64,000 bases of DNA, taken from the IMG/VR virus record IMGVR_UViG_3300025809_001850, one strand, 5' to 3'. This document shows positions 32,418 through 50,281 of this stretch, one piece after another. The position numbers and the translations under genes were made by a program. Within the stretch, counting starts at the first letter, position 1. Each line of letters starts with the position of its first letter. The stretch comes from a virus. Its lineage: Duplodnaviria > Caudoviricetes. Under the pieces are notes generated by a model. That model worked only from the letters and a program-made list of their open reading frames with translations, was not told the origin of the DNA and did not search any database.

Positions 32418-32422
32418 GTTTG

Positions 32423-32511: not shown

Positions 32512-32544
32512 GTTTTTATCATATAGTTATATTTATATATTCAC

Positions 32545-33276: not shown

Positions 33277-33290
33277 CTTAATAAACTTTA

Positions 33291-33366
33291 GGGGATGTAG
33301 CTCAGTTGGAAGAGCATCTGATTTGCATTCAGAAGGTCATCGGTTCGATCCCGTTCATCTCCACCA
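33291..33366 (+). tRNA. tRNA-Ala(TGC)
   Basis: GGGGATG/CATCTCC with G3:U70, TCTGA-TTTGCAT-TCAGA, CCA. Confidence 0.95.
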
Positions 33367-35004: not shown

Positions 35005-36558
35005 ATGACTAAACTCAAGTGCATAAAAACATCATGCTCATATCCAGAAACGTGTGACTGGAATAATATGTGTATGCTAGAACAACTTGAAATAAGTAAT
35101 TCTGCAAGAGCAAACAAAACCTCAGTTGATACAATTGGGGTTCTTTTGTGTCATGGGTTTCTAAGCAAACATGAACAAATGGTCCCATTAAGCAATTATA
35201 TATACGAAACGCTTGGGTGGGAAACAAGTTTAGTGGAATTAACTGGACACGGATATGATCAAGAAAATATTGCAACTGCAACTTGGAACAACTGGGTTGA
35301 TGATGTAAAAGAAAAGTATTTAAATTTAAAACAAAGGTGCAATAAAGTTTATATGATTGGGTTTTCTTTGGGTGGTTGTATATCTGCATATGTTGCTAGT
35401 TTAAAAAGCATAAGACCTGAAGGATTAATTATTGTAAATGGTGTATTTGGTGTTAAGAACGTTTTCAACAAACTTCTTCCTGGTGTGATGGTATACAACA
35501 AAATATGCAATAAACTAAATTTACAAAAGATAATGTTAGAATCAATTACTAATGATAGTGAGGATCCTGATCTAAATCAACCTCTTGTTAATTTGTCGGC
35601 AACAAACGAACTACGTAAAATGTCTAAAATAGCAGGTACTATATTACAAGATGTGAAGTGTCCTACCTTTTTAATTCAAGAATACAATGATCCAACTGTA
35701 TTTTATGGAAGTGGAAAACGAGCATTTAAAAAACTTGGTGCTACTTTCAAACGATTTTATACAACCAAGTTAAATACTCATCTTACAATTCACGACAAAG
35801 GACTTGAGTGTAGTGTGTTTTGTAAGATATTGGAATTTCTAAAAGATGTAGAAAAAGATGATTTTGTTAATATTGCTCATCGTGGAGCAAGTGGTGATTT
35901 TACTGAAAATACATTGCAAGCATTTGAAGAAGCAATTGATCGTGGGTGTGATGCGATTGAATTTGATGTGCAAAGTATAGGAAATCGTTTTAGAATTTTT
36001 CACGACTGTAACTTTAATAGAATGTTTGGTGTTGATTTAAAAACCAACGAAGCATCTGAAGCAGATGTAAATAAACTAATATATCCTAATCTTGAGAAAC
36101 TTCCTACATTACAACAAACACTTGATTGTATAAATGGTCGTGTTGATGTTAATGTAGAAATCAAAAGCAATCAAGCAGCCTTAAATATTGCTAATATAGC
36201 AGAATCATATTTAGAAAAACCAGAGTGGAAAAACAAAAGCATTACTTTATCTTGTTTTAGTCTTGCTACTATAAACACTATACATAGATTTAAAAAGAAA
36301 ATAAAACTTTCATATTTGTTGTACGATCAGTATTGTAATTTAGAAGAAATCAAACGACTTAAAGATGATTACATTAAGTATAATATTCATTCTTTGAATC
36401 TTCCACTTGAAAGTATTTCCGAGAAAATTATCGAGTATTGCGTAAACAACAACATACGAATATATGTATATACCGTAAATGAAATCAAACAAATTCGGTA
36501 TTTACGAGAGTTGGGTGTTAATGGTGTATTTACCGACTTTCCCAAATTGATACGATAA
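35005..36558 (+). CDS. alpha/beta-hydrolase fused to glycerophosphodiester phosphodiesterase
   Basis: LCHGF, GFSLGG, DPTV and TH, then IAHRGASG..ENT..EFDVQ..FHD. Confidence 0.9.
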   Translation: MTKLKCIKTSCSYPETCDWNNMCMLEQLEISNSARANKTSVDTIGVLLCHGFLSKHEQMVPLSNYIYETLGWETSLVELTGHGYDQENIATATWNNWVDDVKEKYLNLKQRCNKVYMIGFSLGGCISAYVASLKSIRPEGLIIVNGVFGVKNVFNKLLPGVMVYNKICNKLNLQKIMLESITNDSEDPDLNQPLVNLSATNELRKMSKIAGTILQDVKCPTFLIQEYNDPTVFYGSGKRAFKKLGATFKRFYTTKLNTHLTIHDKGLECSVFCKILEFLKDVEKDDFVNIAHRGASGDFTENTLQAFEEAIDRGCDAIEFDVQSIGNRFRIFHDCNFNRMFGVDLKTNEASEADVNKLIYPNLEKLPTLQQTLDCINGRVDVNVEIKSNQAALNIANIAESYLEKPEWKNKSITLSCFSLATINTIHRFKKKIKLSYLLYDQYCNLEEIKRLKDDYIKYNIHSLNLPLESISEKIIEYCVNNNIRIYVYTVNEIKQIRYLRELGVNGVFTDFPKLIR

Positions 36559-36585
36559 AATTGTTTTAATATATATTTATTCATC

Positions 36586-38142
36586 ATGGATGTTGTTGAA
36601 CATTATCTATCGGAGATTGATTTAACCGATGTTTCTTCTGAGTTAAGAACTTTGATGCGTGAAGCTGCCACTACAAATGCCTCGGATGCCGAAGTTGCTA
36701 TATGTGTTGCGTATAACATCAAACAAGGTAAGAAGGAAGCAGATGCTCTTAAATCGGCAGGTGTAGACAAAGCAACTTGGAAAAAGATTAAAGCAAACAA
36801 ATTAGTGTATAATGCAGGTAAAAAAGTTGCGAAAGGATTAAAGAACATCGGTGGTACTTTATTGTGGTCAGGAAAAACATCTGCATCTACATTTTACAAA
36901 AACGGAAAAAAAGAAGCATCAAAAGCAGACTTGGTTGGAAACAATCGGAATCGGTTGTCTGTAAAGCAAGCAAGTAGTTCTGCAAAAAGTGCTCAACTTG
37001 TAAGTGGAACTTCCGGTGAAGCAAGTGGAGTATTTGAATTTGCCGTTAAACATTTAGAAGCAAGTGGTGGAAAACTGACATCTGATTCTGAGATAAAAGA
37101 GTTGTTTGATATTTTTGAAAAAGAAATGTCAAAAGCAATTCGCACGGATATAAATGTAGAAGTTGGTAAAGGTAAAAAAGATTTTCGTGATTGGGTTATA
37201 TCCGACAGTGGTCGTTATGATGTTGTTAAGTCAAAAGCAAAACAAGCAACGGACGATGAAATTAAACGACACATTCGTGCAGAGTTGGCAGTTAATAATG
37301 CTATATCAAATGCAGATGCTCCTAAACTTCAAGGAGATTACATCAAAGGAGTTAAACCACTAACTGCAAAACAAATCAGCAAAATGCGTTCTGATTATAT
37401 TTCATCGGATATGAAAATCGGTGATGTTACAATTGCAAAGGATTATCTTGAAAAAGCAGATGTTCCTTCTGATTTATTAACCAAAGAAGCACTTAGAACT
37501 CAAATAATGGATTTGATTGATGTGGCATTAAAAGCAGATACTTGGAAAACTCGTATTCGTGAGATTATGCAAAACAACGCAGAACTTAAAAAGTGGATTG
37601 TGTATGAAGCTGCAAGTGGTCTTGGTAAGTTTACTGGTAAAGCATCTAAAGGAGGAAACTACTTTGGTGATAATACTGCGGTTGCTAACAAGATATTGGT
37701 ATTTGATTCTAACGGTGTAAAGAAAGTACACGATTTATTCAAGTGGTCACAAAGCAATGGTAATCTTTGTAATAATGTTGATATTAGTTTCAAAGGAAGT
37801 GGTCGCAGAAAATTCATTAAGTTTGGATTGGCTGCTGAGTCTATTAATAGCAACATAGAAAATATCATAACCGAGGAATACAATAAACTTGAAGATCAAT
37901 TGAAACTACTCAACGAAGGTAAAATTTGGGACACCATAAAAAGTGGATTTGATTCTGCGTCAACTTGGGTTAAAGCATCATATGATAAAATTGAAGTTTT
38001 ACTTTTGCAGTTTTATGAAAATGCTATAAAGAAGGTTCTTGATTACTTTTGGGAACTATTTCAAAAAGGATTAAGTCCCGTACTTGAAAAAATGGGATTT
38101 ATTATGGAGGGTGTTTGTTCGTTATCTGTTCCTGTTTGGTAA
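36586..38142 (+). CDS. PD-(D/E)XK-like protein paralogue A
   Basis: DAEVAI...SKADL...LSVK...AQLVS; shares EAASG.GKF and SFKGSG with paralogue B. Confidence 0.6.
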   Translation: MDVVEHYLSEIDLTDVSSELRTLMREAATTNASDAEVAICVAYNIKQGKKEADALKSAGVDKATWKKIKANKLVYNAGKKVAKGLKNIGGTLLWSGKTSASTFYKNGKKEASKADLVGNNRNRLSVKQASSSAKSAQLVSGTSGEASGVFEFAVKHLEASGGKLTSDSEIKELFDIFEKEMSKAIRTDINVEVGKGKKDFRDWVISDSGRYDVVKSKAKQATDDEIKRHIRAELAVNNAISNADAPKLQGDYIKGVKPLTAKQISKMRSDYISSDMKIGDVTIAKDYLEKADVPSDLLTKEALRTQIMDLIDVALKADTWKTRIREIMQNNAELKKWIVYEAASGLGKFTGKASKGGNYFGDNTAVANKILVFDSNGVKKVHDLFKWSQSNGNLCNNVDISFKGSGRRKFIKFGLAAESINSNIENIITEEYNKLEDQLKLLNEGKIWDTIKSGFDSASTWVKASYDKIEVLLLQFYENAIKKVLDYFWELFQKGLSPVLEKMGFIMEGVCSLSVPVW

Positions 38143-38171
38143 TAAAATATCTTTGATATATATTTATTGTC

Positions 38172-39800
38172 GTGGATATTGTAGAACATTATTTGAATAA
38201 GTCTCTGATTACATCTATTGCGTATGAAGATGTTTTGTGTGAACTTGCTTTACACGATTTGTTTAAACGTGACAACAAGCAAAGGTTCATTGACAAAGTT
38301 GATAGCAACGAAGTTCTTGATGATAAAAATAATCCTCTTAAAATAAAAAGTGGTACTACTGCTTTGTGGAAAGATATGAAGAAGCAACTTTTATCTGCAA
38401 CAGACAAAGATGGAATTTCTGATTGGGGTGGTCGTGGTGAAACCAAGATAAAGCAACTATTTGGTGTTCCTATTAGTAAAATAGGTAAATCACAAAATGA
38501 TATGAGTGGTGGTGCGAGTAGTGGTAATCCAAGTGGAGAAGATTGGGAGGCAATGATTGCTATTGGTCTTGCTACTATTGAAAAGAAAGACCCATCAAAA
38601 GAAGTACCTGACGAATGGTCTAGGATAGAAAGAAAAGGTTTTTGGGATAGTGAATTTAATCGTGACATTGCAGAAAAGATTGCAAGTGCATTTAAGAAAA
38701 ACGGATATGCACCCATTTCACAAACTGGTAGTGGAAAGGGTGGTGCAGGGGTATCAAGTGAATGGGGAGAGATATTTAAAGAATACGGAAGTGGTAGTAT
38801 GAACAAAACTCCAAAGACTGATATCAAGGGTGGTTCAAAGAAAATTTCATTAAAGAAAGCAGGTGGTTCTCAAGCAATGAGTGCCAAGCAAGCAGAAGCA
38901 GCTTCTACATTCGGAGCAGCTGTTAGTATGTATGGCAAGAATTATCCGAGCAGTGTAAATAAAATCTTAGATTCATTTAAAAGTTCAATTCTTGATTTAT
39001 CTGAAAGTGGTTATCGTGGTAGTATATCTGCTCTTGAAAAAGACATCAAAGCAAGTGAGGGTGATCCAAAGAAAATGAAGAAACTTAAACCCGTGGTTGA
39101 TAATTTGAAGCAAGCAAGAGATGATGGTAAGTTTATTACATCGGAAATGAATCGTTTGTTTTTAAGTGATTCAAAATTTAAAGACTTGTTTGTATTTGAA
39201 GCAGCTACCGGTTCTGTTAAGTTTGGAGATTCATCGGAAAGTCGTGCTGATACTATGGTGGAAATTGATACTGATAGTGGTAAAATTACATCACAATACA
39301 AAATGAATTCTCCAAGTGATATTTCTTCGTTGGCAAGTCAATATAAATTTTATTTGTCATTCAAAACAAGTGGTAATAGCACTCCTTATATGGCACTCCG
39401 AGGAAATATGGAACAAGACCCAAAGAAGGTTACTGCGTGGATGAAGAAGCAGGTTGTAGAAAATAAAAACTTTTCAACGATATGTCCAACATTTTCTACT
39501 ATTATTCAAGAAGGTTTCAAACAAGACGAATTTGGAAAAAGATTATTAACTGAATCGAGTTATCAAAATCTCAATGAATGGCAATTACTTAAAAAAGTTC
39601 GTGACGGAATAACATCTGTTAGCAACAAAGTAAAAGACCGTTTTGTTAAAATATGGAATTGGATTTCCGAACGAGTTTCAATTGCATTTGATTGGTTAAA
39701 GAAACAAGGAGCAAAAGCACTTGTTTATCTTCAAAAGTTTTTTGGAGTGAAACTTGACAAGTGTGGAATAAACGGAAAAATAGAACTTTTCTCTGCGTAA
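38172..39800 (+). CDS. PD-(D/E)XK-like protein paralogue B
   Basis: DWEAMI...TPKTDI...ISLKKAGGSQAMS; EAATG.VKF and SFKTSG; GTG start. Confidence 0.65.
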   Translation: MDIVEHYLNKSLITSIAYEDVLCELALHDLFKRDNKQRFIDKVDSNEVLDDKNNPLKIKSGTTALWKDMKKQLLSATDKDGISDWGGRGETKIKQLFGVPISKIGKSQNDMSGGASSGNPSGEDWEAMIAIGLATIEKKDPSKEVPDEWSRIERKGFWDSEFNRDIAEKIASAFKKNGYAPISQTGSGKGGAGVSSEWGEIFKEYGSGSMNKTPKTDIKGGSKKISLKKAGGSQAMSAKQAEAASTFGAAVSMYGKNYPSSVNKILDSFKSSILDLSESGYRGSISALEKDIKASEGDPKKMKKLKPVVDNLKQARDDGKFITSEMNRLFLSDSKFKDLFVFEAATGSVKFGDSSESRADTMVEIDTDSGKITSQYKMNSPSDISSLASQYKFYLSFKTSGNSTPYMALRGNMEQDPKKVTAWMKKQVVENKNFSTICPTFSTIIQEGFKQDEFGKRLLTESSYQNLNEWQLLKKVRDGITSVSNKVKDRFVKIWNWISERVSIAFDWLKKQGAKALVYLQKFFGVKLDKCGINGKIELFSA

Positions 39801-40021: not shown

Positions 40022-41599
40022 TTATTTTTTGTAAAACACAAAGATTGGTTCGTACTTGTGCAACTCTCCGTTTATTTGACAACAATTTTTGATTGTGGTT
40101 CTATCTCCACGCATTGTTGCCATAAGCATTTTAAGAGTTTCAACATACTCAAGACCATATTCTTGTAAAATGTTTTTGCTATCTTCTTCAAGTGGTATAT
40201 ATCCACCACCGTGAGTGATGTCCGCGATATTCCACAATAAATACCTGTCGTGTCTTAAATACTGAGATGCAGTTCTTAATGTGGGACGAAGAAAGTTTTC
40301 TTTCCAATCTTCATACGATGGAAACTTCTTGAAACTTTGTGTGTCATCTGATGAGTATTGTTCACGATTAAAATATGGTGGACTGGTAAATACTAAATCA
40401 AATGTTCCTTTATATTTTTCAAATTCTTTGTTTTGGTGAATGACTTCACTTCCATCTTGAAACAACTGATATGTATTACGGTGTCCAAAAAATGGATTAC
40501 CACCATTTGTTTTGTCGTTGAAAAAATCTGCTACATATTCGTATCTTGATTTATTGAGTTCACTAATATAGTTGTCTGTATTTGGGTCTGTTCCGACATA
40601 ATGTATCTGACGATCATCTATGCTCATAGCACCAAGGATGCGACCACCCCAACCTGCACTTGGATCATATACGGTTAGATCATTTTTGTTTTCAATGTGG
40701 TCTGTATATTTTTGATAAACGAACTTTGCAGTCAATGGTGGAAAGTTTACGGCAGGATGTCTTCCAAGTCCAAGACGAAGTGCTTCCATTGCTGATGGAA
40801 AGATGGTTGATGTTTTGTTGTAGTAACGAATACTAAATTTATATTGAGTTTCATCAAGTGTATCAAGTTTATCAAAGTCTGTGTTAAAGTCTGTTGTTCT
40901 TTCTAAATTGCTGATATTGTTTTGTTCAAGCAAGCCCTCTTTATACAACCTAAGTATTTGTTGAGCAGATAACAATAAATGATTTTCTTCATAGTCTTCA
41001 AACTTTCTTTCTGTGAAAAGTTCAATAATCCAAAAGTCATTGTCGGGATGTAAATGTTTTTCTGCTATAAAGTTTCTAATCCAAGTTTCTCCATCGTTTG
41101 TTGGGTATGGTACTTCATCATCGTTTTTTCTGATTGTTTTTCCGTGAGCAAAAAAAGCATCTCGTCTAATTGTTCTTCTCATCGTGACGTGGAAACTATC
41201 TCTTTTATCGGGATCAACAAAATAGTCGTAAATGCTTTCTGAATGAGTACCTGTTTGCAATGCCATTTTCGTTTTAAGCATTGTTGGAAAAAACTGATCA
41301 ATTACAGTTGCGAACTTGTTAAAGTTTTTTACAATGGTGTTTGATTTATCAAGTTCATCAAGATGTAAAAACTTGCTAACATCATATCTTTGTAGTTTAT
41401 TAAATTGTGCAATAATATCTTTTTCTATTTTACCACTTCTCGGTGGAATTCCTTTTTCATTCCAAGTGGTAACAATATAATATCTTAAATCATCCAACCA
41501 AATTTCAAGTTCCTCTTTGCTTTTTAAAAGTAACTGATGGAAGGTTATGTTTTGCTCCCAATCTACGAGGTTGTTTTTCTCGTAAAAATATTTCTTCAT
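40022..41599 (-). CDS. long amino-MTase paralogue 2
   Basis: YDPSAGWGGR, GTDPN and FTSPPYFN; start MKKYFYEKNN at 41599 (ATGA overlap). Confidence 0.88.
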   Translation of the reverse strand: MKKYFYEKNNLVDWEQNITFHQLLLKSKEELEIWLDDLRYYIVTTWNEKGIPPRSGKIEKDIIAQFNKLQRYDVSKFLHLDELDKSNTIVKNFNKFATVIDQFFPTMLKTKMALQTGTHSESIYDYFVDPDKRDSFHVTMRRTIRRDAFFAHGKTIRKNDDEVPYPTNDGETWIRNFIAEKHLHPDNDFWIIELFTERKFEDYEENHLLLSAQQILRLYKEGLLEQNNISNLERTTDFNTDFDKLDTLDETQYKFSIRYYNKTSTIFPSAMEALRLGLGRHPAVNFPPLTAKFVYQKYTDHIENKNDLTVYDPSAGWGGRILGAMSIDDRQIHYVGTDPNTDNYISELNKSRYEYVADFFNDKTNGGNPFFGHRNTYQLFQDGSEVIHQNKEFEKYKGTFDLVFTSPPYFNREQYSSDDTQSFKKFPSYEDWKENFLRPTLRTASQYLRHDRYLLWNIADITHGGGYIPLEEDSKNILQEYGLEYVETLKMLMATMRGDRTTIKNCCQINGELHKYEPIFVFYKK

Positions 41600-43185
41600 T
41601 TCTTGTAAAACACAAAGATAGGTTCGTACTTTTGTAACTCTCCGTTTATCTTGCAACAATTCTTAACCGTTTCTGCTTTAACACCACGCATTGTTGTCAT
41701 AAGCATTTTAAGAGTTTCAACATACTCAAGTCCGTATTCCGCAAGAATATCACGACTATCTTTTTCTAATGGCATAAATCCATCTCCGTCTGCGATGTCT
41801 GCGATATTCCAAAGCAAGTATCTATCGTTCTTTAAATACTCTGCCGCCGTTTTCAAAGTAGGACGAAGAAAATTGTCTCTCCAATCTGCATACTCTGGAA
41901 ACTTTTTGAAACTCTGAGATTCATCTGCTGAATATTGCTCACGATTAAAATATGGTGGACTTGTAAAAACCAAATCAAGTTTGCCTTTATATTTTTGGAA
42001 ACTTGGGTTATTGTGAATTTCTTCACTTCCATTTTGATAAACATCATATGTGTTGCGATGACCAAAGAATGGATTACCTCCATTTGTTTTATCATTAAAA
42101 AAGTCTGCAAGATATTCGTAACGACTTTTGCCAAGTTCATCAATATAATTGTCGGTGTTTGGATCAGTTCCGATATAATGAATTTGACGATCATGTACTG
42201 ACATAGCACCAAGAATGCGACCACCCCATCCTGCACTTGGATCATATATATGAAGATCACTTTTATCTTGAATGTGGTCTGTGTACTTCTGATAAATGTA
42301 CTTTGCAGTCAACGGAGGAAAGTTTACTGCTGGTTGACTAAGACCCAACTTGAATGCTTCCATTGCTGATGGAAATATTCTTGAGTTTTTGTCGTAATAT
42401 CTAATGCTAAAACGAAACTCTACTTCTTTGTCATCTTCAATAACGACATCATTTATATTTTCAATATCGTCACCGAAGTTTGCAGTTCTTTCTAAATTTC
42501 TGATGTTGTTTATTTCAAGCAAACCTTCTTTGTGTAATTTTCTTATTTGCTTTGCAGTAAGCATCAAACTACTTTCTTCGTATGAATCAAACTTCTTTTC
42601 GGTGAACAACTCAATAATCCAAAAGTCGTTGTGTGGATGAAGATGTTTCTCTTTGACAAAATTACGAACCCACTCTTCTGCGTTTTCAGTTGGACACGGA
42701 ACATCATAATCATTTTTCTTGATTGTTCTTCCATGAGCATAAAATGAATCTCTTCGCACGGTTCGTCTCATGCAAGTGTGAAAACTTTCTCGTTTCTCTG
42801 GATTAGCAAAGCAATCATAAACACTCCAAGATGTATGCTTACTTGAACCTATTTTAGTTTTAAGCATTGTTGGAAAAAACTGATCAACTACGGTTGCGAA
42901 CTTGTTAAAGTTTTTGACGATGGTATTTGTTCCGTCCATTTCGTCTTTGTGCTGAAACTTATATACATTGTATCCTGATAACTTGTTTAAGTTGGCAATA
43001 ATATCTTTTTCGTTTTTACCAGTTCTCGGAGGAAGACCCTCATTATCCCAAGTGTCTACAATATAAGTTCTAAGTTCGTCTATCCACTTGGTTAACTCTG
43101 TACCATTCTTTTGTAATAGTTCATGGAATGTAATATTAACCCTACATTCTGCAAGATTGTTTTTTTCGTAAAAGTATTTTTTCAT
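41596..43185 (-). CDS. long amino-MTase paralogue 1
   Basis: Same motifs; AVNFPPLTAK; start MKKYFYEKNN at 43185. Confidence 0.88.
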   Translation of the reverse strand: MKKYFYEKNNLAECRVNITFHELLQKNGTELTKWIDELRTYIVDTWDNEGLPPRTGKNEKDIIANLNKLSGYNVYKFQHKDEMDGTNTIVKNFNKFATVVDQFFPTMLKTKIGSSKHTSWSVYDCFANPEKRESFHTCMRRTVRRDSFYAHGRTIKKNDYDVPCPTENAEEWVRNFVKEKHLHPHNDFWIIELFTEKKFDSYEESSLMLTAKQIRKLHKEGLLEINNIRNLERTANFGDDIENINDVVIEDDKEVEFRFSIRYYDKNSRIFPSAMEAFKLGLSQPAVNFPPLTAKYIYQKYTDHIQDKSDLHIYDPSAGWGGRILGAMSVHDRQIHYIGTDPNTDNYIDELGKSRYEYLADFFNDKTNGGNPFFGHRNTYDVYQNGSEEIHNNPSFQKYKGKLDLVFTSPPYFNREQYSADESQSFKKFPEYADWRDNFLRPTLKTAAEYLKNDRYLLWNIADIADGDGFMPLEKDSRDILAEYGLEYVETLKMLMTTMRGVKAETVKNCCKINGELQKYEPIFVFYKK

Positions 43186-43186
43186 A

Positions 43187-44014
43187 TTATGCACCTACAT
43201 TCCAAAACAACGCACCTTCTTTTGCGTGTTCTTTAACAAACTTCCATGCTTTAGCATCATAAGTCGGAGCAGATGGAAATGGTGGCATTTCACTTTCTTT
43301 TATTGCTTTATCAAACTGATACTCTGATCTATAATATTTTGCTCGTCCTATTTCTCGTTCATTCATTTTATGTCCAACAGATACTACATTAACAGGTATC
43401 TCAGGAAACGCAAGTTGTAAACCACGACTAATAGTTCCACTTGATCCAACACTCCATATCTCACTTGGTAATTTTTTGGACAACGCATTTCGTGCAACCT
43501 TTATTATACTTGCCACAACCGTTGGATGTTCAAGACCAATTGGAAATTCCATTCTATTTTCAGGGTCTTCTGCAACATATTTTTTTGCTCTTGATTTGGT
43601 TACCGATAGCATTCCCATATTAACCCATTCGTATATAGCACCCAAACCCATTCCTCTTTTTTGATATTCGTGGTAATTCTCAGGATTTCGTTTTGCCATA
43701 AACAGAATTACTTTTTTTCCGTATTTCTCTGCAACGACCGGTAAAGATATTTGTGCATATCCTGTTGCAGGACAACAACCAAATACAATTTCGTTTGCCG
43801 TTGTTTCTTGTATAAACTTATCAACAAACCTAATCTTACTTCCGTAGTTTAATAAATCATCACGCACTACATCAATACCTTCATAATTGATAATAACCGG
43901 ATCAGGATTTGGGTCTTCCCAATCTTTCACCAGACCAAGTAGTTGATCTTCACTCCACACATTACCTGTGTTGTCTTCATATACTGATTCTATAAATTGT
44001 GATAACATTACCAT
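43187..44014 (-). CDS. fold-type II PLP-dependent enzyme
   Basis: VRDDLL..GSKIR (PLP Lys), VGSSGT loop, YDAKAW and LFWNVG; start could be 44008. Confidence 0.85.
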   Translation of the reverse strand: MVMLSQFIESVYEDNTGNVWSEDQLLGLVKDWEDPNPDPVIINYEGIDVVRDDLLNYGSKIRFVDKFIQETTANEIVFGCCPATGYAQISLPVVAEKYGKKVILFMAKRNPENYHEYQKRGMGLGAIYEWVNMGMLSVTKSRAKKYVAEDPENRMEFPIGLEHPTVVASIIKVARNALSKKLPSEIWSVGSSGTISRGLQLAFPEIPVNVVSVGHKMNEREIGRAKYYRSEYQFDKAIKESEMPPFPSAPTYDAKAWKFVKEHAKEGALFWNVGA

Positions 44015-44478
44015 TCCTTTGTGTTTACTTTGTTTGCTCGGTCTTTTGATAGATTACATCCCATGAGTTCACCCAATATACGCGTTCTATTGGAAGGTCC
44101 TGGTCTGCCAACCGTATTATACATGAAATAACACTTTTTTGCTTTCGTGTAATCCACATCTTCAAAATTAGAAAATTGATCAACTGCCAAATCAACTATT
44201 GAATAATCTGGCCACATAATAAAACGATGAAGTCCATCGTCTCCTGGTATACCAGGTAGTTTATATGGTTTAGAACCACGTGGTGATAAATAGTAATATA
44301 CAAACTCTGCAATTACATAACAATAGTTTTTGGTTGGATTATCTTCTGACCAACCCTCTCGCATTAACTTTGTTTTAAGATGTTGTATTCCCATGATTCT
44401 AAGTGAGTTGTGTAACTTGTCTTTAGTTACACCTGCAATATCGTACATTTTTTGAAGTCGATCTTCTGAGATTTTCAT
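44008..44478 (-). CDS. Cys-His-Asp (transglutaminase/papain-like) protein
   Basis: NYCYVIAE, LHRF and VDLAVDQF. Confidence 0.55.
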   Translation of the reverse strand: MKISEDRLQKMYDIAGVTKDKLHNSLRIMGIQHLKTKLMREGWSEDNPTKNYCYVIAEFVYYYLSPRGSKPYKLPGIPGDDGLHRFIMWPDYSIVDLAVDQFSNFEDVDYTKAKKCYFMYNTVGRPGPSNRTRILGELMGCNLSKDRANKVNTKEW

Positions 44479-45761
44479 TCAATGTAATCGTCTGCTTCTT
44501 TCGTAGGTGGGTATAGTTTACTGCTTTCTACCATCCAATCTCTAAAGTTTTTATTTGCTTTTAAATCAACCACCAAGTGGTATCTGTCTTCTGTTCCACC
44601 GTTGAATGCGGTATGAGGTTTTCTCATATCAAGATACCACAATTCTCCTTGTTTCATTTTGTCTACCGTTTTTGATCCGTCTGTGTTCCACAACGTAAAC
44701 TGAACCTTTGGGTTAGTTCTAATTGGAAAGTGAACTCTTGCCCATTGATTGTCTGATATACCTGCTTCTTTGTCTTGTCTGTCGGTGTGTCTTTGTAACT
44801 CACCCTCACCCCCGGATAACTTTAATATCCGAATTCTTTCAAATTCGTATGGAAGTAATTTAAGATATTCTTCAACCGCCGGAAGTTTTTCACGAAGTGG
44901 GGTATCTTCAACTTTCCATTTTAGTTTTTCTGGATTTTCTTTTTTCCACTTGTTACCCATTTCACTTGGTTTGATAATAAAGTCCCAATCACCTCCATAT
45001 CCAGAAACTGTAATACCCGACCACGAATCACTTTTGTTGTAGTTAGAGTAGTGATTAGAGAAATCTGAATTTACCTTATCAAGTTGTTCCATTATTTTTT
45101 TAGGATTGGGTATGTTGGGCATGGCAAGTCGTTGCAACGCAATTTCTTGGGCAGGATCAATCTGCGTATGCTCACCACCCTTAAACCAAAATCCGTACAT
45201 ATCTGCAAAACTTGATATTAAATTGTCTTTGCGAGTATATCCAATTGATGCAAGAAGATCACGAATTCGTTTCAATTGCATATCACACTCAACTACTGTA
45301 GTTCCTGATTCAAAAAAGTTTCCTTTTGCTTCATGCTTTTGAATGAGATTTCCTAACCACTCTTCGTATCCAGGATAGCAGGCCACTTCCTGTATGTATG
45401 AGTCATTGCTACTTAGTGTTATTTCTCTACCAGTAAAACTGACTATTTTCTTTTTCTTGGAATGCATTTTCGGAATAACGAAATATAAAATACACGCACG
45501 AATAACTCCACCTTCGTCTTCAACCCAATCTACTTTTTCGTAAGTATCTTCTTTATGACCAAGCAGTTTTTGGTTGGTCATGTTGTTTATTTTCCTAAAT
45601 GGGTCACGTAGTCTTGGAGAATCTTTAAATGAATCTTCTGGATGTTGTGTATTCCAAAAGCAACTCAACAAATTCTCATATATTGGACTATCTTCATAGA
45701 CCCACTTTTTTCCATTGTGAAATGGTTTGGGGTAATCTAGCTTTAAATTCCTAAAATTCAT
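44475..45761 (-). CDS. GNAT-like N-domain fused to Asp/Asn beta-hydroxylase-like 2OG-Fe(II) dioxygenase
   Basis: C-domain RIRI..LQRHTD..RVHFP..GELWYLD..KPHTAFNGG..RYHLVVD; the N-domain GNAT call is tentative. Confidence 0.75.
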   Translation of the reverse strand: MNFRNLKLDYPKPFHNGKKWVYEDSPIYENLLSCFWNTQHPEDSFKDSPRLRDPFRKINNMTNQKLLGHKEDTYEKVDWVEDEGGVIRACILYFVIPKMHSKKKKIVSFTGREITLSSNDSYIQEVACYPGYEEWLGNLIQKHEAKGNFFESGTTVVECDMQLKRIRDLLASIGYTRKDNLISSFADMYGFWFKGGEHTQIDPAQEIALQRLAMPNIPNPKKIMEQLDKVNSDFSNHYSNYNKSDSWSGITVSGYGGDWDFIIKPSEMGNKWKKENPEKLKWKVEDTPLREKLPAVEEYLKLLPYEFERIRILKLSGGEGELQRHTDRQDKEAGISDNQWARVHFPIRTNPKVQFTLWNTDGSKTVDKMKQGELWYLDMRKPHTAFNGGTEDRYHLVVDLKANKNFRDWMVESSKLYPPTKEADDYIE

Positions 45762-45782
45762 ATATATATTATATGAATTATT

Positions 45783-46688
45783 TTACTTTGCGTCAACTAT
45801 TTTTTTAATGTAATCTTCAAGTTTTATTTTTGCAACCCAACCTAAGTGTTGGTAAGTTAAAGAAGGAATTGCTTTTCCGTAAAATCTTTCACCCCGTCTT
45901 TCTGGAATCATAATGTGTTTGTGATTAAACATTTTTGCTACATCAATTATTTTATGAGAAATAGAAGTTCCAAGGGGGTATTCATCCTGACGTCCATTCT
46001 CTGCCGCCAGCACCACACCATTCACAATGTCATTAACATGAGTAAAATCTCTTGATTGTTCTCCTGGTTCCACAACCGTGAGTGGTTCTCCTTTAGCATA
46101 TTGCTCTTCAAAGATTCCTATTACGGTTGCATAATCTCCTGTTCTAACTTGTCCAGGTCCGTAAGCATTATAAAAATAGGTTATCTCATATTTCAAATCA
46201 AACCAATCTGCGTAGTTCTTTATGAGTTCAACCATTTTTGCTTTCATCCACGCATACGGAGAAAGATTTTCATCTTTACCATCATTACCAAACTTACTTG
46301 AACTAGCAGAGTAAATTAACTTTGCTTTTTTTGCAACACAATAATCAAGAACCATTTTTGTTCCTTGTATATTATAATCCCAACAACTATCAAATCCATC
46401 AAAACTTGTTACTATTCTTGAAAACTCTCCGAAGTGAAAAACAACATCTGGTTCAAATGAATCGGCAACATCCATTTTGGTATTATTTGCATCAAATTTT
46501 TTCGGAATCAACGTCTGAGTATCCTTATCAAGATAAGTTATTTTTTTGCTTTTGATGTGGTTACTTTCATACCCACTACTATAATTGTCAATAGACACAA
46601 CTTCTATATTCTTATACTTGCGAATAAGTTTGCGTATAAGTGCAGTGCCAACGAATCCCGCACCACCTGTTATTAATACTTTGTTCAC
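45783..46688 (-). CDS. NDP-sugar epimerase/dehydratase (extended SDR)
   Basis: ITGGAGFVG, YSASSS, YAWMK and RDFTHV. Confidence 0.93.
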   Translation of the reverse strand: MNKVLITGGAGFVGTALIRKLIRKYKNIEVVSIDNYSSGYESNHIKSKKITYLDKDTQTLIPKKFDANNTKMDVADSFEPDVVFHFGEFSRIVTSFDGFDSCWDYNIQGTKMVLDYCVAKKAKLIYSASSSKFGNDGKDENLSPYAWMKAKMVELIKNYADWFDLKYEITYFYNAYGPGQVRTGDYATVIGIFEEQYAKGEPLTVVEPGEQSRDFTHVNDIVNGVVLAAENGRQDEYPLGTSISHKIIDVAKMFNHKHIMIPERRGERFYGKAIPSLTYQHLGWVAKIKLEDYIKKIVDAK

Positions 46689-47092
46689 TTTTGTTCTTTT
46701 AACCCGGTTAAATCACTTGAACTTCGTATTTTGTCGCCGAGACCATCAACCATTTCAATGTTATGATTTTTACAAACAACACTTTCAGGAACTTCACCCG
46801 TACTTCTATCTCCACCATTTGCAAAGATGTCGGGTTTAATTGCATCTAGAGAAGCACATACACTTTTGTCTTGATCAATGCTGAGAAACACTTCATCAAC
46901 AATTTTAAGTGCTTCTACGATTTTTACTCTATCTGCTTCATCCATGAATGGTTTGCCTTTTTTAAGAACACATTGATGATTGTTGTTTACAATAACAACA
47001 AGACGATCACCAAGTTGTTTTGCCATTTCTAAATACTCTAAATGTCCTACATGAATAGGATCAAAGTATCCACTAACTGCTACTGTTTTCAT
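46685..47092 (-). CDS. cytidylyltransferase-family nucleotidyltransferase
   Basis: SGYFDPIHVGH, ANGGDR and IRSSS; start moved to 47092. Confidence 0.9.
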   Translation of the reverse strand: MKTVAVSGYFDPIHVGHLEYLEMAKQLGDRLVVIVNNNHQCVLKKGKPFMDEADRVKIVEALKIVDEVFLSIDQDKSVCASLDAIKPDIFANGGDRSTGEVPESVVCKNHNIEMVDGLGDKIRSSSDLTGLKEQK

Positions 47093-47096
47093 TTTA

Positions 47097-47468
47097 CTAT
47101 TCCGATTTATGTTTTTCTGGACGATCATAATCATCCTGAACACGAACAATGTCATCTTCACCAAAATAAGTTCCTGTTTGAACTTCCACTAAAATCATAT
47201 CTCCTGTGGCACTTGGATTTGCCATTCTATGTTTTGCTCCGAGTGGAATCAACACGGTTTCACCTGCTTTGTAATCTTCCGTAACATCATCTAAAGTTAT
47301 TCTCGCAATCCCACTAACGACTGTCCATGCTTCTTGTCGTTTGTGATGATACTGATAACTTAATCTTTGTCCCGGTTTCACGAAGATGCGTTTAACTTTG
47401 CAGTAATCTGCGTCTAGAAGAATTTCATAATTTCCCCAAGGTCTAATACTTTCGTCTGTTTCACTCAT
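47097..47468 (-). CDS. mannose-6-phosphate isomerase type II cupin domain
   Basis: RPWG, PGQRLSYQYHHKRQEAW and EVQTGTYFGEDDIVR. Confidence 0.92.
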   Translation of the reverse strand: MSETDESIRPWGNYEILLDADYCKVKRIFVKPGQRLSYQYHHKRQEAWTVVSGIARITLDDVTEDYKAGETVLIPLGAKHRMANPSATGDMILVEVQTGTYFGEDDIVRVQDDYDRPEKHKSE

Positions 47469-47473
47469 AATTT

Positions 47474-47593
47474 TTATCCCCATCTATCTGCTAGATCTTG
47501 TGCAGATATCTGATTGTTGTTTTTTATATTTTTTACTTTATTCGGTAAAATTACTATACTATTTTTTATGATGTTAGTAAAGTTAATTTTCAT
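47474..47593 (-). CDS. 39-aa microprotein (not in ORF track)
   Basis: MKINFTNIIKNSIVILPNKVKNIKNNNQISAQDLADRWG; ATGA overlap. Confidence 0.5.
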   Translation of the reverse strand: MKINFTNIIKNSIVILPNKVKNIKNNNQISAQDLADRWG

Positions 47594-48543
47594 TGACCAT
47601 ACACTCCTTCAAACTTTTCAATAAAGTTATTCAATTCTGACTTTGGCAGCTCATTAACACCCGCTGCTTTCTCACGACCACCACCAGTTGGAAATTGTAA
47701 GGCAAGTTTGCTTGCTCCGTATGGATTTGTTTTTGGTGAACGGATGCTTACACGATAAGTTTCTTCGTCTATCAATGTTAAAATTGCAAATGCTTTGTTT
47801 GGGGTATCTGTTGTTTGTTGATTGCTATATATACCCGAATACCGAACGGATGCTTTTGTGTTCGGAAGTAGAATTACCTTACCTGTATCTGTGTCGTGTA
47901 AAATTTCTGATGAACTTAATTCTGCTTTATCTGAAATCATCTGTGTATGAATTTTGTTGTAGATTTCCGATTTTTTTCTGTATTGAAACGGAGATACATA
48001 TTGATGTAAATCAAGATACACTTCTTTTGGATCAACTGTTAAGTCTGATAATTCGTTTCCGTATCCATTATAGTTTAATGTTTCACCAATTTCTTTAAGT
48101 TCCGACATTATCGTTTCATTGAAGTTAGGATTAAGTTTTTCTGCTTGTTCGTGTAAATTATCTCCGTATGCTCCACATATAGTCCAAGGTCTGTGTAATC
48201 CGTCTATATATTTATCAACTAAAATGTTTGTGCAACAATTTGGGTCTGCATCTACTTTTATTGAAAAGTTTTCACCTAGATCAGTTTCACCTGGTTCGTG
48301 GTGATCAAACCAAGTTACACGATTGTTGTTATTTAGTACCTCACCTATATAGTCTTTATTAGACAACAATGAAATATCAAAAACAGTAAGTGTTGATTTT
48401 TTAATATCAACTGCGTGTCTTAAAAGTTTTACATCACGTTTGACTCCTGTAAAAACTTCACTTTTTTGTGGAAATTGTAAACGATATTGATGTAGACTTA
48501 TAATGCCATCTGCATCTCCGTTAAAAAAATCATAATACTTCAT
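47590..48543 (-). CDS. DHH-superfamily phosphoesterase
   Basis: NGDADG, FDIS, FDHH and GGGREKAAG; start moved to 48543. Confidence 0.85.
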   Translation of the reverse strand: MKYYDFFNGDADGIISLHQYRLQFPQKSEVFTGVKRDVKLLRHAVDIKKSTLTVFDISLLSNKDYIGEVLNNNNRVTWFDHHEPGETDLGENFSIKVDADPNCCTNILVDKYIDGLHRPWTICGAYGDNLHEQAEKLNPNFNETIMSELKEIGETLNYNGYGNELSDLTVDPKEVYLDLHQYVSPFQYRKKSEIYNKIHTQMISDKAELSSSEILHDTDTGKVILLPNTKASVRYSGIYSNQQTTDTPNKAFAILTLIDEETYRVSIRSPKTNPYGASKLALQFPTGGGREKAAGVNELPKSELNNFIEKFEGVYGQ

Positions 48544-48544
48544 T

Positions 48545-49387
48545 TTATTCCTCGGCAACTGCACGACCTTTATCTGCTTTCCAGTCCTGTTCTGATCGGT
48601 CTATTTCTTCGTTTCTTTTAATTACCGCATCTAAAATGGGTGATTCAACTTTATTTTCTTTTGCAAAGTTTGCTAATGCGTTTGTGTCTTTCGGAAAACA
48701 AGTTCCTCCGAATCCACGTTTACCATCGTGTCCTGGTACTTTTGTATGACCCGTTCCTATTCTTTTATCTTGTGTTGCAATACAACGAACGTTTTCGTAA
48801 TCAATACCGACTTCTGAACAAATGCTTTCAAGTTCGTTAAAGAATCCAACCTTAACACTTAAAAACACATTCTTTAAATACTTGATCATTTCTGCTTCAC
48901 CTGGTTTGCATTGAATTACTTGCTTGTTAACAACAGAACCCGTTCCTCCGTTGTAAGCCAACTCAAACATACGTTTCATTTTTTCGTATAAAAAAGGATC
49001 AGTAGAACCAAGTATCCATTGATCGCAGTTCTTAAAATCTTCTTCCCAATTTTTCTCGGTAAGAAATTCCGGCATAAAGTTAACATCAAGTTCTTCACTT
49101 GTTCCCGGTGGAACTGTAGACCTCAACACAATATACTTGCTATCATCTATTTCTTGTATTTCTTCGCATACTGAACGAACAATATCAAGATTTGCACTTC
49201 CATCTGAATTCATTGGTGTAGGAACGGCAACGAAAATAATTTCGGACTCTTCTACAAATGTTTCAATATCCAATGTTTTAGGATCTCTTTTTTCGGGAAC
49301 TACATCCCATACCAAAACTTCTACGTGTGGTCTAAGCAATGTCATTGCATGACCCACGAAACCATTACCAACCACTCCAATCTTCAT
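48545..49387 (-). CDS. ugd: UDP-glucose/GDP-mannose dehydrogenase family, lacking C-terminal domain
   Basis: GNGFVG, VAVPTP, LRSTVPPGT, PEFL and GFGGTCFPKD. Confidence 0.9.
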   Translation of the reverse strand: MKIGVVGNGFVGHAMTLLRPHVEVLVWDVVPEKRDPKTLDIETFVEESEIIFVAVPTPMNSDGSANLDIVRSVCEEIQEIDDSKYIVLRSTVPPGTSEELDVNFMPEFLTEKNWEEDFKNCDQWILGSTDPFLYEKMKRMFELAYNGGTGSVVNKQVIQCKPGEAEMIKYLKNVFLSVKVGFFNELESICSEVGIDYENVRCIATQDKRIGTGHTKVPGHDGKRGFGGTCFPKDTNALANFAKENKVESPILDAVIKRNEEIDRSEQDWKADKGRAVAEE

Positions 49388-49452
49388 ATAACACAATCTC
49401 CATTAAATTAATGCGATATAACCTTTTATTATAAATATAATAAAACGAAGTA

Positions 49453-50268
49453 TTACTTGAATTTTCTTTTAATTCTATCGATTGCGTTTTTGTCGGAAAC
49501 ATTAGTTGAGTTTCCAAGTGAAGAGCCGAATATGTTTAATATCTCATTCTTACTTAATTTTTTATCATCGTCAACAGAACGTATTTTTTCTTTAGCATCG
49601 TGTACACCCTTAATGATGTTGCTTGTCATCTGACTACTTGTTATTCCGAACCATGTAATTAGTGCAGGTATTTTTCCCACCAACCAACCAAATAGTTGAG
49701 TGATCACAGGAAGAAGAGCAGGTCCTGCTATAACACAAACTGCGATTGCACCAAGTAAACCGAATGTTCCTGTTAACCATGCCCACAAAGAAGAAAAGAA
49801 TCCATCTTTGTTTTCTTGTGCTTTTAATTCTCCTAAACTAATTAGTTTTTCCTCGGTATCTTTTAAGTCGTGTCCAAGAATTTCTTTTCGTCTGCTTAAG
49901 TCTATAACATCACTATCTCTGTCTGCGAGATTTTCTATTGCCAGTTCGTTGTTGTTTATTACATCTTCCACATAAATTTTATCACCTGGTTGTGGAAGAC
50001 CCACAATTTCTTGTGCCTTTTGTGCGAAACCGAGTGCTACCAGGTCTTCTTTAGATTTGTCTTCTGATAAAGATAGGGCATCTACTGCCCCCGATACAAA
50101 TGCACGTGTGTGCCTACTCAACTCTCCTTCTTTGCGAGTTATTTCTCCTGCAATTTCTTGTCGGTCTTTTTTTAAACCCCAAGTGGGCAAACTTATGCAT
50201 CCTGATGTGAATATCAGTATCATTGCGACCAAACTTGGTATAAGTATTCCACGAATCCTCATACTCAT
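49453..50268 (-). CDS. lipoprotein with C-terminal hydrophobic segments
   Basis: Signal peptide with lipobox TSGC (Cys24), coiled coil and TM region. Confidence 0.7.
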   Translation of the reverse strand: MSMRIRGILIPSLVAMILIFTSGCISLPTWGLKKDRQEIAGEITRKEGELSRHTRAFVSGAVDALSLSEDKSKEDLVALGFAQKAQEIVGLPQPGDKIYVEDVINNNELAIENLADRDSDVIDLSRRKEILGHDLKDTEEKLISLGELKAQENKDGFFSSLWAWLTGTFGLLGAIAVCVIAGPALLPVITQLFGWLVGKIPALITWFGITSSQMTSNIIKGVHDAKEKIRSVDDDKKLSKNEILNIFGSSLGNSTNVSDKNAIDRIKRKFK

Positions 50269-50281
50269 ATATATGCAGTTT

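Follow-up and report, generated by a model that had tools for sequence, protein, structure and literature searches.

The 64-kb window analyzed here comes from a marine T4-like phage. Inspection of its open reading frames and their junctions identified five tightly coupled genes, all on the minus strand, at positions 40022–45761. The first gene, HYD (44475–45761), encodes a 428-residue protein with a GNAT fold (residues 1–198) and an Fe(II)/2OG oxygenase domain (residues 202–420). HYD meets the YunG-like gene (44008–44478; 156 residues) at an ATGA overlap. The junction of the YunG-like gene with the gene for a PLP-dependent enzyme (43187–44014; 275 residues) is ATGGTAATG, read as TAATG or as a 7-nt overlap. 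A 1-nt gap separates the PLP gene from MT2 (41596–43185; 529 residues), and MT2 and MT1 (40022–41599; 525 residues) are joined by another ATGA overlap. Both methylases start at the ATG of MKKYFYEK; the TTG and GTG codons further upstream in the automatic open reading frame list are not true starts. These coordinates and junctions match the first-pass annotation, which described five minus-strand genes linked by ATGA/TAATG overlaps or a 1-nt gap. The gene order and overlaps are identical in four further contigs (L003, L005, L006, and L010; protein identity 81–97%). This recurrence, together with the fusion of the same domains into single polypeptides, places the coupling beyond chance.

The five genes are preceded, across a gap of 21 nt, by a block of nucleotide-sugar and glycosyltransferase genes that spans 12 kb in the same orientation, with epimerase, cytidylyltransferase, UDP-glucose dehydrogenase, and glycosyltransferase genes directly upstream of the cassette. 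The coupling of the five genes holds, but they are not isolated. A sigma70-like promoter match (45768–45796, minus strand; TTGACG, 17 nt, TATAAT; 11/12), which is a consensus match only, extends from just before the 21-nt gap that lies upstream of HYD into the gap itself.

HYD, the YunG-like protein, and the PLP enzyme

The HYD oxygenase domain is of the AspH/proline-hydroxylase type (PF05118), with residues His325, Asp327, His383, and Arg393, and the folds nearest to it are amino-acid hydroxylases, not AlkB or TET. The fold confirms the GNAT plus 2OG-Fe hydroxylase architecture initially assigned to the 428-residue protein. The acylation step attributed to its GNAT domain is doubtful because the GNAT fold is present but lacks the conserved acyl-CoA loop. 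The YunG-like protein had been described as a Cys-His-Asp protein, and Cys53 (in NYCYV), His84, and Asp96 are indeed conserved throughout the YunG-like family.

The PLP enzyme has fold type II and aligns along its whole length with its homologue gp52 from Pseudomonas phage M6 (hhalign probability 99.2%, E 2.9e-19; full-length BLASTP match, 2e-9). Both proteins belong to phrog_7093 and share the C-terminal signature PPFPS..YDAKAW..FWNVG, and gp52 Lys36 is matched by Lys60, which lies in the GSKIR motif. This lysine never varies in the 33 fusion proteins, and its conservation among 55 homologues is 90% or more. In polymeric DNA, amino-acid:nucleobase conjugates are the decarboxylation substrates of M6 gp52 and ViI gp226 (PMC8989533), and the kinship to these decarboxylases suggested at first reading is borne out by BLASTP, hhalign, and PHROG membership. 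The family is not confined to methylase partners, since PLP homologues adjoin thymidylate-synthase-like genes in L075, L080, G007, and G009, and the homologue in L077 adjoins genes for a seryl-tRNA synthetase, a tRNA-binding protein, and Dus.

The long methylases

MT1 and MT2 are paralogues (~70% identity) that combine an N-terminal domain (residues ~1–283 in MT1) with a C-terminal class-I amino-methylase-fold domain. The ~280 extra N-terminal residues reported earlier amount to ~285 by our count, with the methylase domain predicted to begin near residue 286. Motif I precedes motif IV in both proteins: DPSAGWGG and FTSPPYF in MT1, and residues 315–323 and TSPPY at 408–412 in MT2, where Asp341 is invariant. 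Motif IV was tallied in 20 fusion proteins, MT1, MT2, and five adjacent or fused methylases; among these PLP-linked enzymes it is SPP[Y/F] in 17 (including MT1 and MT2), CPPY in nine, and D/NPPY in none. Both window proteins score below the PF01555 threshold. Nothing in the sequence discriminates between methyl transfer and transfer of 3-amino-3-carboxypropyl (acp) by these enzymes.

The nearest solved folds of the methylase domain are the tRNA m2G methylases Trm11, TrmN, and Trm14 (Z 14–16), not DNA methylases. This similarity raises the idea that the module modifies tRNA or other RNA, for example with an acp-type or aminopropyl base like acp3U or wybutosine. The phage does carry a tRNA cluster (32171–33366), the L077 PLP homologue has tRNA-related neighbors, and the acp modifications known to us are all on RNA. 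However, the Z-score lead over other methylases is just 1–2 units, and sequence profiles group the enzymes with DNA N6/N4 and Eco57I/Alw26I-type methylases. Moreover, the characterized relatives of the PLP enzyme all act on DNA, and the module is partnered by ParB, terminase, DNA polymerases, UDG, and helicase domains. We regard an RNA target as quite improbable.

MT2 is the conserved anchor of the locus. Near relatives keep it at 88–98% identity whatever cassette lies upstream, whereas MT1 is found in only some of them. In place of the cassette seen here, these relatives carry AsnB-like, 2-hydroxyacid-dehydrogenase-like, HYD', and PLP' genes, or nothing. Near relatives therefore retain the methylase and exchange the tailoring cassette. 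The long methylase is a lineage-wide core gene with more than 2000 homologues and is cassette-free in L007, L008, and the L012-L059 lineage, so MT1 and MT2 are not dedicated to the cassette and may be ordinary m4C methylases.

The methylases could also be the modification half of a restriction-modification system, with the two paralogous genes at 36586–39800, whose products are 518 and 542 residues long, encoding the nucleases. These genes converge on the methylases and are syntenic in near relatives, and one weak atlas lead connects them to a HaeIII-like endonuclease cluster, although its score of 0.81 is at chance level. Among Pfam and PHROG families, no nuclease matched either protein. A tail-fibre-like GDPD/hydrolase gene precedes the two genes, whose products are 31% to 99% identical among strains with near-identical MT2, a spread typical of receptor-binding proteins. 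Restriction-modification also leaves the methylase fusions with PLP, HYD, and YunG unexplained, and we consider it highly improbable.

Fusions and genomic contexts in other phages

An exhaustive search with the PLP protein as query returned 1064 matches that were surveyed for fusions. Methylase, HYD, and PLP domains are joined in P0123 and P0135, and HYD, YunG, and PLP in P0126. YunG precedes PLP in six fusions and follows it in one; methylase and PLP are fused in P0125, P0130, and P0139, and methylase and HYD in P0074. L073 encodes a YunG plus long-methylase fusion adjoining ParB, and gp1 of Erythrobacter phage R6L places the PLP domain between methylase motifs I and IV. In unrelated phages, unfused genes are ordered PolA-HYD-MT-PLP in L071, PLP-MT near UDG and PolA in L079, MT-PLP adjoining terminase in Mae-JY30, and HYD-PLP-DUF7831-MT after gp47/gp46-like genes in L043. 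L068 has an MT-HYD pair without PLP. The first-pass annotation had set co-occurrence elsewhere as a test in advance; all four gene types co-occur and occur fused. The catalytic motifs of the module are intact. The five genes probably form a nucleobase hypermodification module acting on DNA, judging from these sequence comparisons.

Another view is that MT1 and MT2 are orphan methylases that methylate DNA for anti-restriction beside an unrelated cassette. HYD, YunG, and PLP would then use another substrate, such as another type of base adduct, a small molecule (for instance an amino acid derived from SAM), or a sugar or amino-acid unit made by the adjacent nucleotide-sugar block. Six N6/N4-type methylase-like genes lie within the window, so methylation is a habit of the lineage, and the position of the cassette directly downstream of the glycan genes and the non-methylase contexts of PLP homologues also fit. 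However, glycan genes are not conserved partners, being missing from L071, L079, L043, R6L, and Mae-JY30. The repeated, independent methylase fusions with PLP, HYD, and YunG, including the triple fusions and the PLP domain lodged within a methylase, are difficult to account for unless the enzymes share a substrate. These data make the orphan explanation unlikely.

The fusions also bear on a route in which MT1 and MT2 genuinely methylate cytosine N4 or adenine N6 and the oxygenase then hydroxylates the N-methyl group, giving an N-hydroxymethyl hemiaminal. In place of an amino-acid:DNA transferase, the YunG-like thiol protein would add serine or glycine, and the gp52-type enzyme would decarboxylate the product, in parallel with the 5-hmdU and 5mC/TET pathways. 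MT2 occurs alone in L007 and L008, which suits a plain methylase with a mark that can be, but need not be, elaborated. The P0074 fusion and the PLP-free L068 pair fit as well, and an amino-acid transfer step does precede the action of gp52-family enzymes. N-hydroxymethyl hemiaminals, however, are chemically labile. The oxygenase is an amino-acid-hydroxylase type (PF05118) and not AlkB or TET/JBP. It is missing from most PLP-linked modules (the MT+PLP fusions, L073, L079, Mae-JY30, and R6L), so hydroxylation is not a general source of the PLP substrate. For 5mC, methylase and dioxygenase pairs are known to generate hydroxymethyl handles (PMC8256090), but the route has only a small likelihood here.

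Related systems and a proposed pathway

The M6/ViI thymidine pathway proceeds from 5-hmdU through the 5-HMUDK kinase and an amino-acid:DNA transferase to the PLP decarboxylase gp52/gp226 (PMC8989533). Beyond the homologous PLP enzyme, with its shared PHROG, aligned lysine, and equal C-terminal signature, the systems resemble each other in that a base in polymeric DNA receives, or here would receive, an amino acid that is subsequently tailored. In both, the tailoring genes recur in shuffled combinations and as fusions, and they include genes for amidotransferases, oxygenases, and acetyltransferase-fold proteins. They differ in that we found no dUMP/dCMP hydroxymethylase, TET/JBP, 5-hmdU kinase, or amino-acid:DNA transferase here. 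Pfam profiles PF00303, PF18724, PF18748, and PF12851 gave zero matches in this record. In relatives, among them the 98%-complete G004, the first three likewise found nothing, although the PF18748 run there had a silent control. These searches agree with the earlier remark that no hmU kinase, aGPT, or TET is visible and extend it to the hydroxymethylase. With the record at just 65% completeness, entry enzymes may be encoded in the third that is missing. The sole group-transfer enzyme here has the SAM-dependent amino-methylase fold, and attachment is therefore probably at an exocyclic amine and not at the pyrimidine C5-methyl.

Microcin C maturation offers an analogy in mechanism only. MccD and MccE carry out acp transfer from SAM by a methylase fold and then PLP decarboxylation to aminopropyl, and the system includes an attached GNAT domain (PMC11350588). 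Instead of DNA, this system modifies a peptidyl-adenylate phosphoramidate, and the MccE decarboxylase belongs to PLP fold group IV, unlike the fold type II enzyme here, with no sequence relationship found. In Synechococcus phage S-B43, which makes 5-carboxymethylcytosine and its glycyl amide, the methylase-fold enzyme CmoX puts a non-methyl group on DNA, and the asparagine-synthetase (AsnB) homologue CmoY acts on the DNA-borne carboxylate (PMC12783734). The AsnB-like gene in the type-B cassette of our relatives may do likewise. CmoX is homologous to C5-cytosine methylases and draws on carboxy-SAM produced by CmoA, whereas the enzymes here are SPPY amino-methylase types, no CmoA is seen, and the PLP decarboxylase implies an alpha-amino acid adduct.

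In tRNA wybutosine synthesis, Tyw2 transfers acp to a base with a Trm5-like methylase fold and the 2OG-dependent Tyw5 hydroxylates the side chain. That pathway acts on RNA and lacks a PLP step, and Tyw5 is a JmjC hydroxylase, in contrast to the AspH/proline-hydroxylase type here.

The most economical reading is group transfer to a base amine followed by decarboxylation and hydroxylation. A PLP enzyme requires a free alpha-amino acid and, to our knowledge, acp is the sole alpha-amino-acid group that methylase-fold enzymes transfer from SAM. SAM, and not free glycine or serine, is the probable source of the amino acid. The identity of the transferred group as acp, its target atom, the sequence of steps, and the biological role are inferred as follows. 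The extra N-terminal domain of MT1 and MT2 probably reads DNA, and the SPPY-type domain would flip a base out and attach SAM-derived acp to the exocyclic amine of that base; the SPPY motif points to cytosine N4 as the probable target. The gp52-type enzyme would then remove the carboxyl group of the added alpha-amino acid to leave an aminopropyl side chain, which the oxygenase would hydroxylate. The YunG-like protein and the GNAT-fold domain may perform or assist some further step. Taken whole, a post-replicative DNA-base hypermodification module that includes acp chemistry is a tentative proposal whose chance we place slightly below even.

The decoration on the DNA base is probably new and amino-acid-derived, and our literature search found no published description of such a module. 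The product is likely a cationic, polyamine-like base. If this is true, such a base would protect the phage genome against host nucleases.

Source phage and gene organization

The virus record that contains the window is 134.8 kb long, with an estimated completeness of 65%. The phage is T4-like, with genes for rIIB and a gp43-type family-B polymerase. Among named phages, Microcystis phage Mel-JY01 is the closest relative (polymerase identity 47%), and megablast searches with the cluster region and with the polymerase region matched no named phage. Marine metagenomes of more than a dozen studies contain the stretch. Five minus-strand genes at 40022-45761 encode, in transcription order, the oxygenase-type protein HYD (428 aa), a small YunG-like protein (156 aa), the PLP enzyme (275 aa), and the methylase-fold paralogues MT2 (529 aa) and MT1 (525 aa), which are ~70% identical. 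The first-pass annotation described genes joined by overlaps or a 1-nt gap, and the sequence confirms junctions of ATGA, ATGGTAATG, a 1-nt gap, and ATGA in transcription order. The 21-nt gap upstream of the cluster contains a sigma70-like promoter match (11/12).

Beyond the gap upstream of the cluster, the same strand carries a nucleotide-sugar and glycosyltransferase block (45783-57595, minus) that encodes an NAD-dependent epimerase, a cytidylyltransferase, a DHH-like protein, a UDP-glucose dehydrogenase, a GT2 enzyme, two GT4 enzymes, and several unknowns. Both GT4 enzymes also match the 'GT4 in conflict systems' family (PF20706). This block may glycosylate virions, host surfaces, or DNA.

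Three plus-strand genes downstream (35005-39800) are convergent with the cluster. The first encodes a tail-fibre-like 517-aa protein with alpha/beta-hydrolase and glycerophosphodiester-phosphodiesterase (GDPD) domains and a tail-fibre PHROG match; it is followed by two unknowns of 518 and 542 aa. A restriction-modification system in which the convergent genes are the nucleases finds no support, since these genes match no nuclease family searched. Among strains whose MT2 is nearly identical, their identity ranges between 31% and 99%, like that of receptor-binding genes. Five tRNA genes (Cys-GCA, Thr-TGT, Glu-TTC, Ser-GGA, and Ala-TGC) are clustered at 32171-33366 on the plus strand.

Contigs of related strains from RNA libraries span MT2, PLP, YunG, and part of HYD. 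RNA libraries can contain DNA, so this coverage was not counted as proof of expression. The match of marine RNA-library contigs to the window ends exactly at 41598 and 43185, the two ends of MT2, which fits MT2 as a conserved unit with variable neighbors.

Protein families of the cluster

The PLP protein is a short PLP enzyme of fold type II and carries a conserved lysine. Along its whole length it is related to gp52, the decarboxylase of Pseudomonas phage M6, by BLASTP (2e-9, residues 59-274 versus 35-277) and by hhalign (probability 99.2%, E 2.9e-19, 222 columns). Both proteins match phrog_7093 (1.5e-38 for the PLP protein and 2.2e-159 for gp52), which is annotated as 'threonine dehydratase' and has gp52 among its members. 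Lys60 of the PLP protein (SKIR) aligns with SKIR 35-38 of gp52, and thus with Lys36, the position proposed for the PLP-binding lysine of gp52 (PMC8989533). This lysine does not vary across 33 fusion proteins, its conservation among 55 homologues is at least 90%, and the C-terminal signature PFP..YD.KAW..FWN.G is common to the PLP protein and gp52. Lee et al. purified gp52 and its ViI homologue gp226, and both decarboxylate amino-acid:nucleobase conjugates in polymeric DNA, the substrates being C-alpha-glycinylthymidine and O-serinylthymidine (PMC8989533). Thus, every characterized relative of the PLP gene acts in DNA hypermodification and requires an alpha-amino acid linked to the base. In line with the first-pass annotation, which places fold-II PLP enzymes in ViI/M6 hypermodification, gp226 was modeled on the fold-II protein 1j0a (PMC8989533). 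By homology the PLP protein belongs to the gp52/gp226 family, and decarboxylation of DNA adducts is its predicted function. PDB sequence searches with the PLP protein alone and with MT2 alone returned no match, and a search with the PLP family profile reached cysteine synthases and serine dehydratases. For the PLP enzyme, an initial assignment to lyases of the ACC-deaminase or threonine-dehydratase type, with a 2-oxo-acid route, was set aside when the homology to the gp52 decarboxylase emerged.

The HYD model (pLDDT 92.9) has two domains. Residues 1-198 adopt a GNAT fold that aligns with many acetyltransferases (Z 10.4-12.1, 134-160 residues aligned). The acyl-CoA pyrophosphate-binding loop (Q/R-x-x-G-x-G/A) is not conserved among 38 homologues with this domain; only six positions are at least 80% conserved, and none forms a loop motif. 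Residues 202-420 are an AspH/proline-hydroxylase-type oxygenase (PF05118, 35.8 bits against a cut-off of 22.6) with fold matches to L-proline cis-4-hydroxylase (4p7x, Z 15.6) and AspH (Z 14.8). The iron triad HxD...H and the 2OG arginine (His325, Asp327, His383, and Arg393) are invariant in 40 sequences.

The small protein is a putative member of the YunG/Phage_YunG-like families (PF24585 and PF24591), with conserved Cys53, His84, and Asp96. It has no Pfam match of its own at E 0.01, and its atlas neighbors at 0.95-0.97 carry YunG families. Eight fusion proteins contain a homologue of it (phmmer 4e-27 to 7e-40), and eight fusion proteins match PF24585. Complex prediction for the PLP enzyme and the YunG-like protein scored 0.00, which gives no verdict either way.

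MT1 and MT2 have weak matches to PF01555 and Eco57I and clearer ones to DNA-methylase PHROGs. Their PF01555 scores (22.1 bits for MT1 and 22.8 bits for MT2) are below the cut-off of 26.7, and a precomputed PF01555 match is present in many homologues that are 47-74% identical. The long methylase has more than 2000 homologues. The AlphaFold model of MT2 (pLDDT 85.8) contains a class-I methylase domain from about residue 286, with motif I (DPSAGWGGR, 315-323) before motif IV (TSPPY, 408-412); both motifs and Asp341 are invariant in 32 homologues. An atlas search with the first 285 residues returned only chance-level unnamed viral clusters, and in the whole-model fold search the methylase domain accounted for most of the signal, leaving this region without an assigned fold; thus, the N-domain fold is not shown to be new. 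The best fold neighbor of MT2 is aTrm11 (Z 15.8), and the solved amino-methylase folds of Trm11, TrmN, and Trm14 score at Z 14-16, only 1-2 units above many other methylases. RNA as the target of the module is suggested by these small fold-score margins and by one gene context only. MT1 and MT2 have a class-I amino-methylase fold, and DNA is the predicted recipient of the transferred group. The fold search found no link to known acp (3-amino-3-carboxypropyl) transferases of the Tyw2, MccD, or CntL type.

Motif IV was compared in 20 fusion proteins, MT1, MT2, and five adjacent or fused methylases. These PLP-linked methylases have SPP[Y/F] in 17 cases (counting MT1 and MT2), CPPY in 9, and D/NPPY in none. 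SPP[Y/F] is the usual form in N4-cytosine enzymes, which makes cytosine N4 the best guess for the acceptor.

Four further N6/N4-type methylase-like genes lie around the DNA polymerase gene, at 16437-17453 (plus, SPPY), 21157-22668 (minus, DPPY), 22595-23494 (minus, CPPY), and 28291-29529 (minus, SPPY). With MT1 and MT2, this makes six such genes in 64 kb. The 412-aa methylase-like product has a C-terminal domain in common with MT1 and MT2 (HMM E 3e-40).

Domain fusions, gene orders, and exchangeable cassettes

An exhaustive phmmer search with the PLP protein identified 1064 relatives, and about one-fifth of the best 150 are long fusion proteins. Architectures were mapped by Pfam and phmmer in 33 of the fusion proteins. 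The PLP domain is fused to methylase and oxygenase domains (P0123 and P0135), to oxygenase and YunG domains (P0126), to YunG alone in either order (YunG-PLP in six proteins, PLP-YunG in P0194), and to methylase alone (P0125, P0130, P0139, and others). The HYD search found a methylase-oxygenase fusion (P0074). Contig L073 encodes, between a PLP gene and a ParB gene, a fusion of a YunG domain with a whole long methylase, including the N-domain. In gp1 of Erythrobacter phage vB_EliS_R6L (L069), methylase motif I and the CPPY motif IV flank the PLP domain, which is apparently inserted likewise in P0147, P0172, P0191, P0211, and P0214. GenBank names R6L gp1 just 'DNA modification methylase'. If MT1 and MT2 were simple orphan methylases that happen to adjoin an unrelated cassette, these fusions of methylases with PLP, HYD, and YunG domains would have no explanation.

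The components also recur as separate genes. The orders are PolA-HYD-MT-PLP in a family-A-polymerase phage (L071), PLP-MT near UDG and PolA (L079), MT-PLP adjoining the terminase in Microcystis phage Mae-JY30, HYD-PLP-DUF7831-MT after gp47/gp46-like genes in a T4-like genome that is 98% complete (L043/G004), and MT-HYD-PLP or MT-HYD (L066 and L068). Failure of the genes to co-occur elsewhere would have refuted the first-pass proposal, but they do co-occur in other phages, as fusions and as recurrent gene orders. Glycan genes are absent from all of these separate-gene loci, so the adjacency of the glycan block in the window is not a conserved link. A glycan or cell-surface role, prompted by the upstream sugar genes, was rejected as the principal interpretation, since the module is also found where such genes are missing.

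In a lineage with a long methylase ~45% identical (L055:2919-12695), the gene order is PLP enzyme, dUTPase, SAM-lyase-family protein, short methylase, family-B polymerase, 239-aa ORF, long methylase, and short methylase. The presence of a SAM lyase beside SAM-using enzymes is curious.

Near relatives, in which MT2 is 88-98% identical, have three states between the epimerase gene and MT2. Type A, found in the window, is HYD-YunG-PLP. Type B occupies the same site upstream of MT2 (L001:5385-10004, and also L002, L004, L009, and L011) and consists of overlapping genes for an AsnB-like glutamine amidotransferase, a 2-hydroxyacid-dehydrogenase-like protein, a divergent AspH-like HYD, and a divergent PLP enzyme. 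Type C has no cassette. MT2 identity does not track cassette type, being 98% between the type A window and type B L001, and MT1 is found in only some of these contigs. In this pattern, the methylase stays constant and the tailoring genes are exchanged.

Entry route and proposed chemistry

Pfam searches covered the entry enzymes of classical hypermodification. The thymidylate-synthase-family hydroxymethylase (PF00303) had no match in the window record (G000) or in the related genomes G001, G002, G003, and G004. The amino-acid:DNA transferase and both parts of the 5-hmdU kinase (PF18724, PF18748, and PF18723) had no match in G000, which is 65% complete, and neither did TET/JBP (PF12851), though its search control was also silent. 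These results agree with the first-pass statement that no hmU kinase, aGPT, or TET is visible. In the relatives, PF18724 had no significant match (one 14-bit match was taken as noise), and the kinase family PF18748 had no match with a silent control. The 98% complete G004 carries HYD-PLP-MT without a hydroxymethylase, transferase, or kinase match; thus, classical amino-acid attachment to a pyrimidine is not available there. The phages share the PLP family with the 5-hmdU thymidine pathway, but its hydroxymethylase, kinase, and transferase are not matched. A sister T4-like lineage has a weak thymidylate-synthase-like ORF (233 aa, 25.9 bits) ~1.5 kb from a divergent PLP gene (G007:C1:25423-25815 and G009:C1:64317-64706) and may use a pyrimidine C5 route. 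Other PLP homologues are in typical pyrimidine-hypermodification loci (L075 and L080). These contexts indicate that the PLP family serves several entry routes.

The PLP enzyme would need a free alpha-amino acid tethered to the base, and in most modules the only other enzyme has a SAM-dependent methylase fold. To our knowledge, acp is the sole alpha-amino-acid group that methylase folds transfer from SAM. The fold of MT1 and MT2 and the downstream PLP decarboxylase are consistent with acp transfer. In the proposed pathway, the methylase-fold enzyme would place SAM-derived acp on an exocyclic base amine, probably cytosine N4; the gp52-type PLP enzyme would decarboxylate the base-tethered acp to aminopropyl; and the AspH-type oxygenase would hydroxylate the side chain to a polyamine-like product. 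The methylase alone would give an acp-base, methylase plus PLP enzyme an aminopropyl side chain, and methylase plus oxygenase a hydroxy-acp side chain; acp transfer would thus account for every architecture seen. The oxygenase belongs with the amino-acid hydroxylases and not with AlkB or TET, which fits acp as the substrate. A route from methyl through N-hydroxymethyl to an amino acid, mirroring 5mC/TET logic, fails on the oxygenase-free modules, because it leaves many methylase-PLP modules unexplained.

Microcin C maturation follows the same logic as the proposed acp pathway, with acp transfer from SAM and then PLP decarboxylation to aminopropyl, and has an attached GNAT domain (PMC11350588). 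The AsnB-like enzyme of the type B cassette would amidate the carboxylate; its precedent is CmoY of cyanophage S-B43, an asparagine-synthetase homologue proven to act on a DNA-borne carboxylate (PMC12783734).

The module is probably a nucleobase hypermodification system, with DNA the most likely target, and as a candidate new DNA hypermodification operon, the first-pass proposal, it is supported by the gp52-family anchor and the many Rosetta-stone fusions. Acp transfer followed by decarboxylation is a plausible but tentative assignment of the chemistry. More tentative still is the full scheme, by which marine T4-like and many unrelated phages might decorate an exocyclic base amine, probably cytosine N4, with SAM-derived acp, which decarboxylation and hydroxylation would then convert to a polyamine-like side chain. 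Full-text literature, with most subscription journals outside the scope, yielded no description of a methylase, PLP, AspH-like, and YunG system. The module is testable by ordinary co-expression and nucleoside mass spectrometry.

All phage amino-acid- and polyamine-type DNA hypermodifications known to us start from a 5-hydroxymethylpyrimidine handle. If the proposal is true, the module would make the first exception among amino-acid-type DNA hypermodifications, and acp-type modification would for the first time extend to DNA. The modified base could bias sequencing and restriction-based methods. The module could yield new enzymes for site-specific DNA labeling with primary amines, and the domain fusions are ready-made single-polypeptide versions of it. 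With more than 2000 long-methylase and more than 1000 PLP homologues, the components are very common in aquatic viromes, so an unrecognized base could be widespread. The module would reveal an independent second way into such modifications, in which a methylase fold uses SAM to alkylate a base amine directly and the same PLP decarboxylase family is reused for tailoring.
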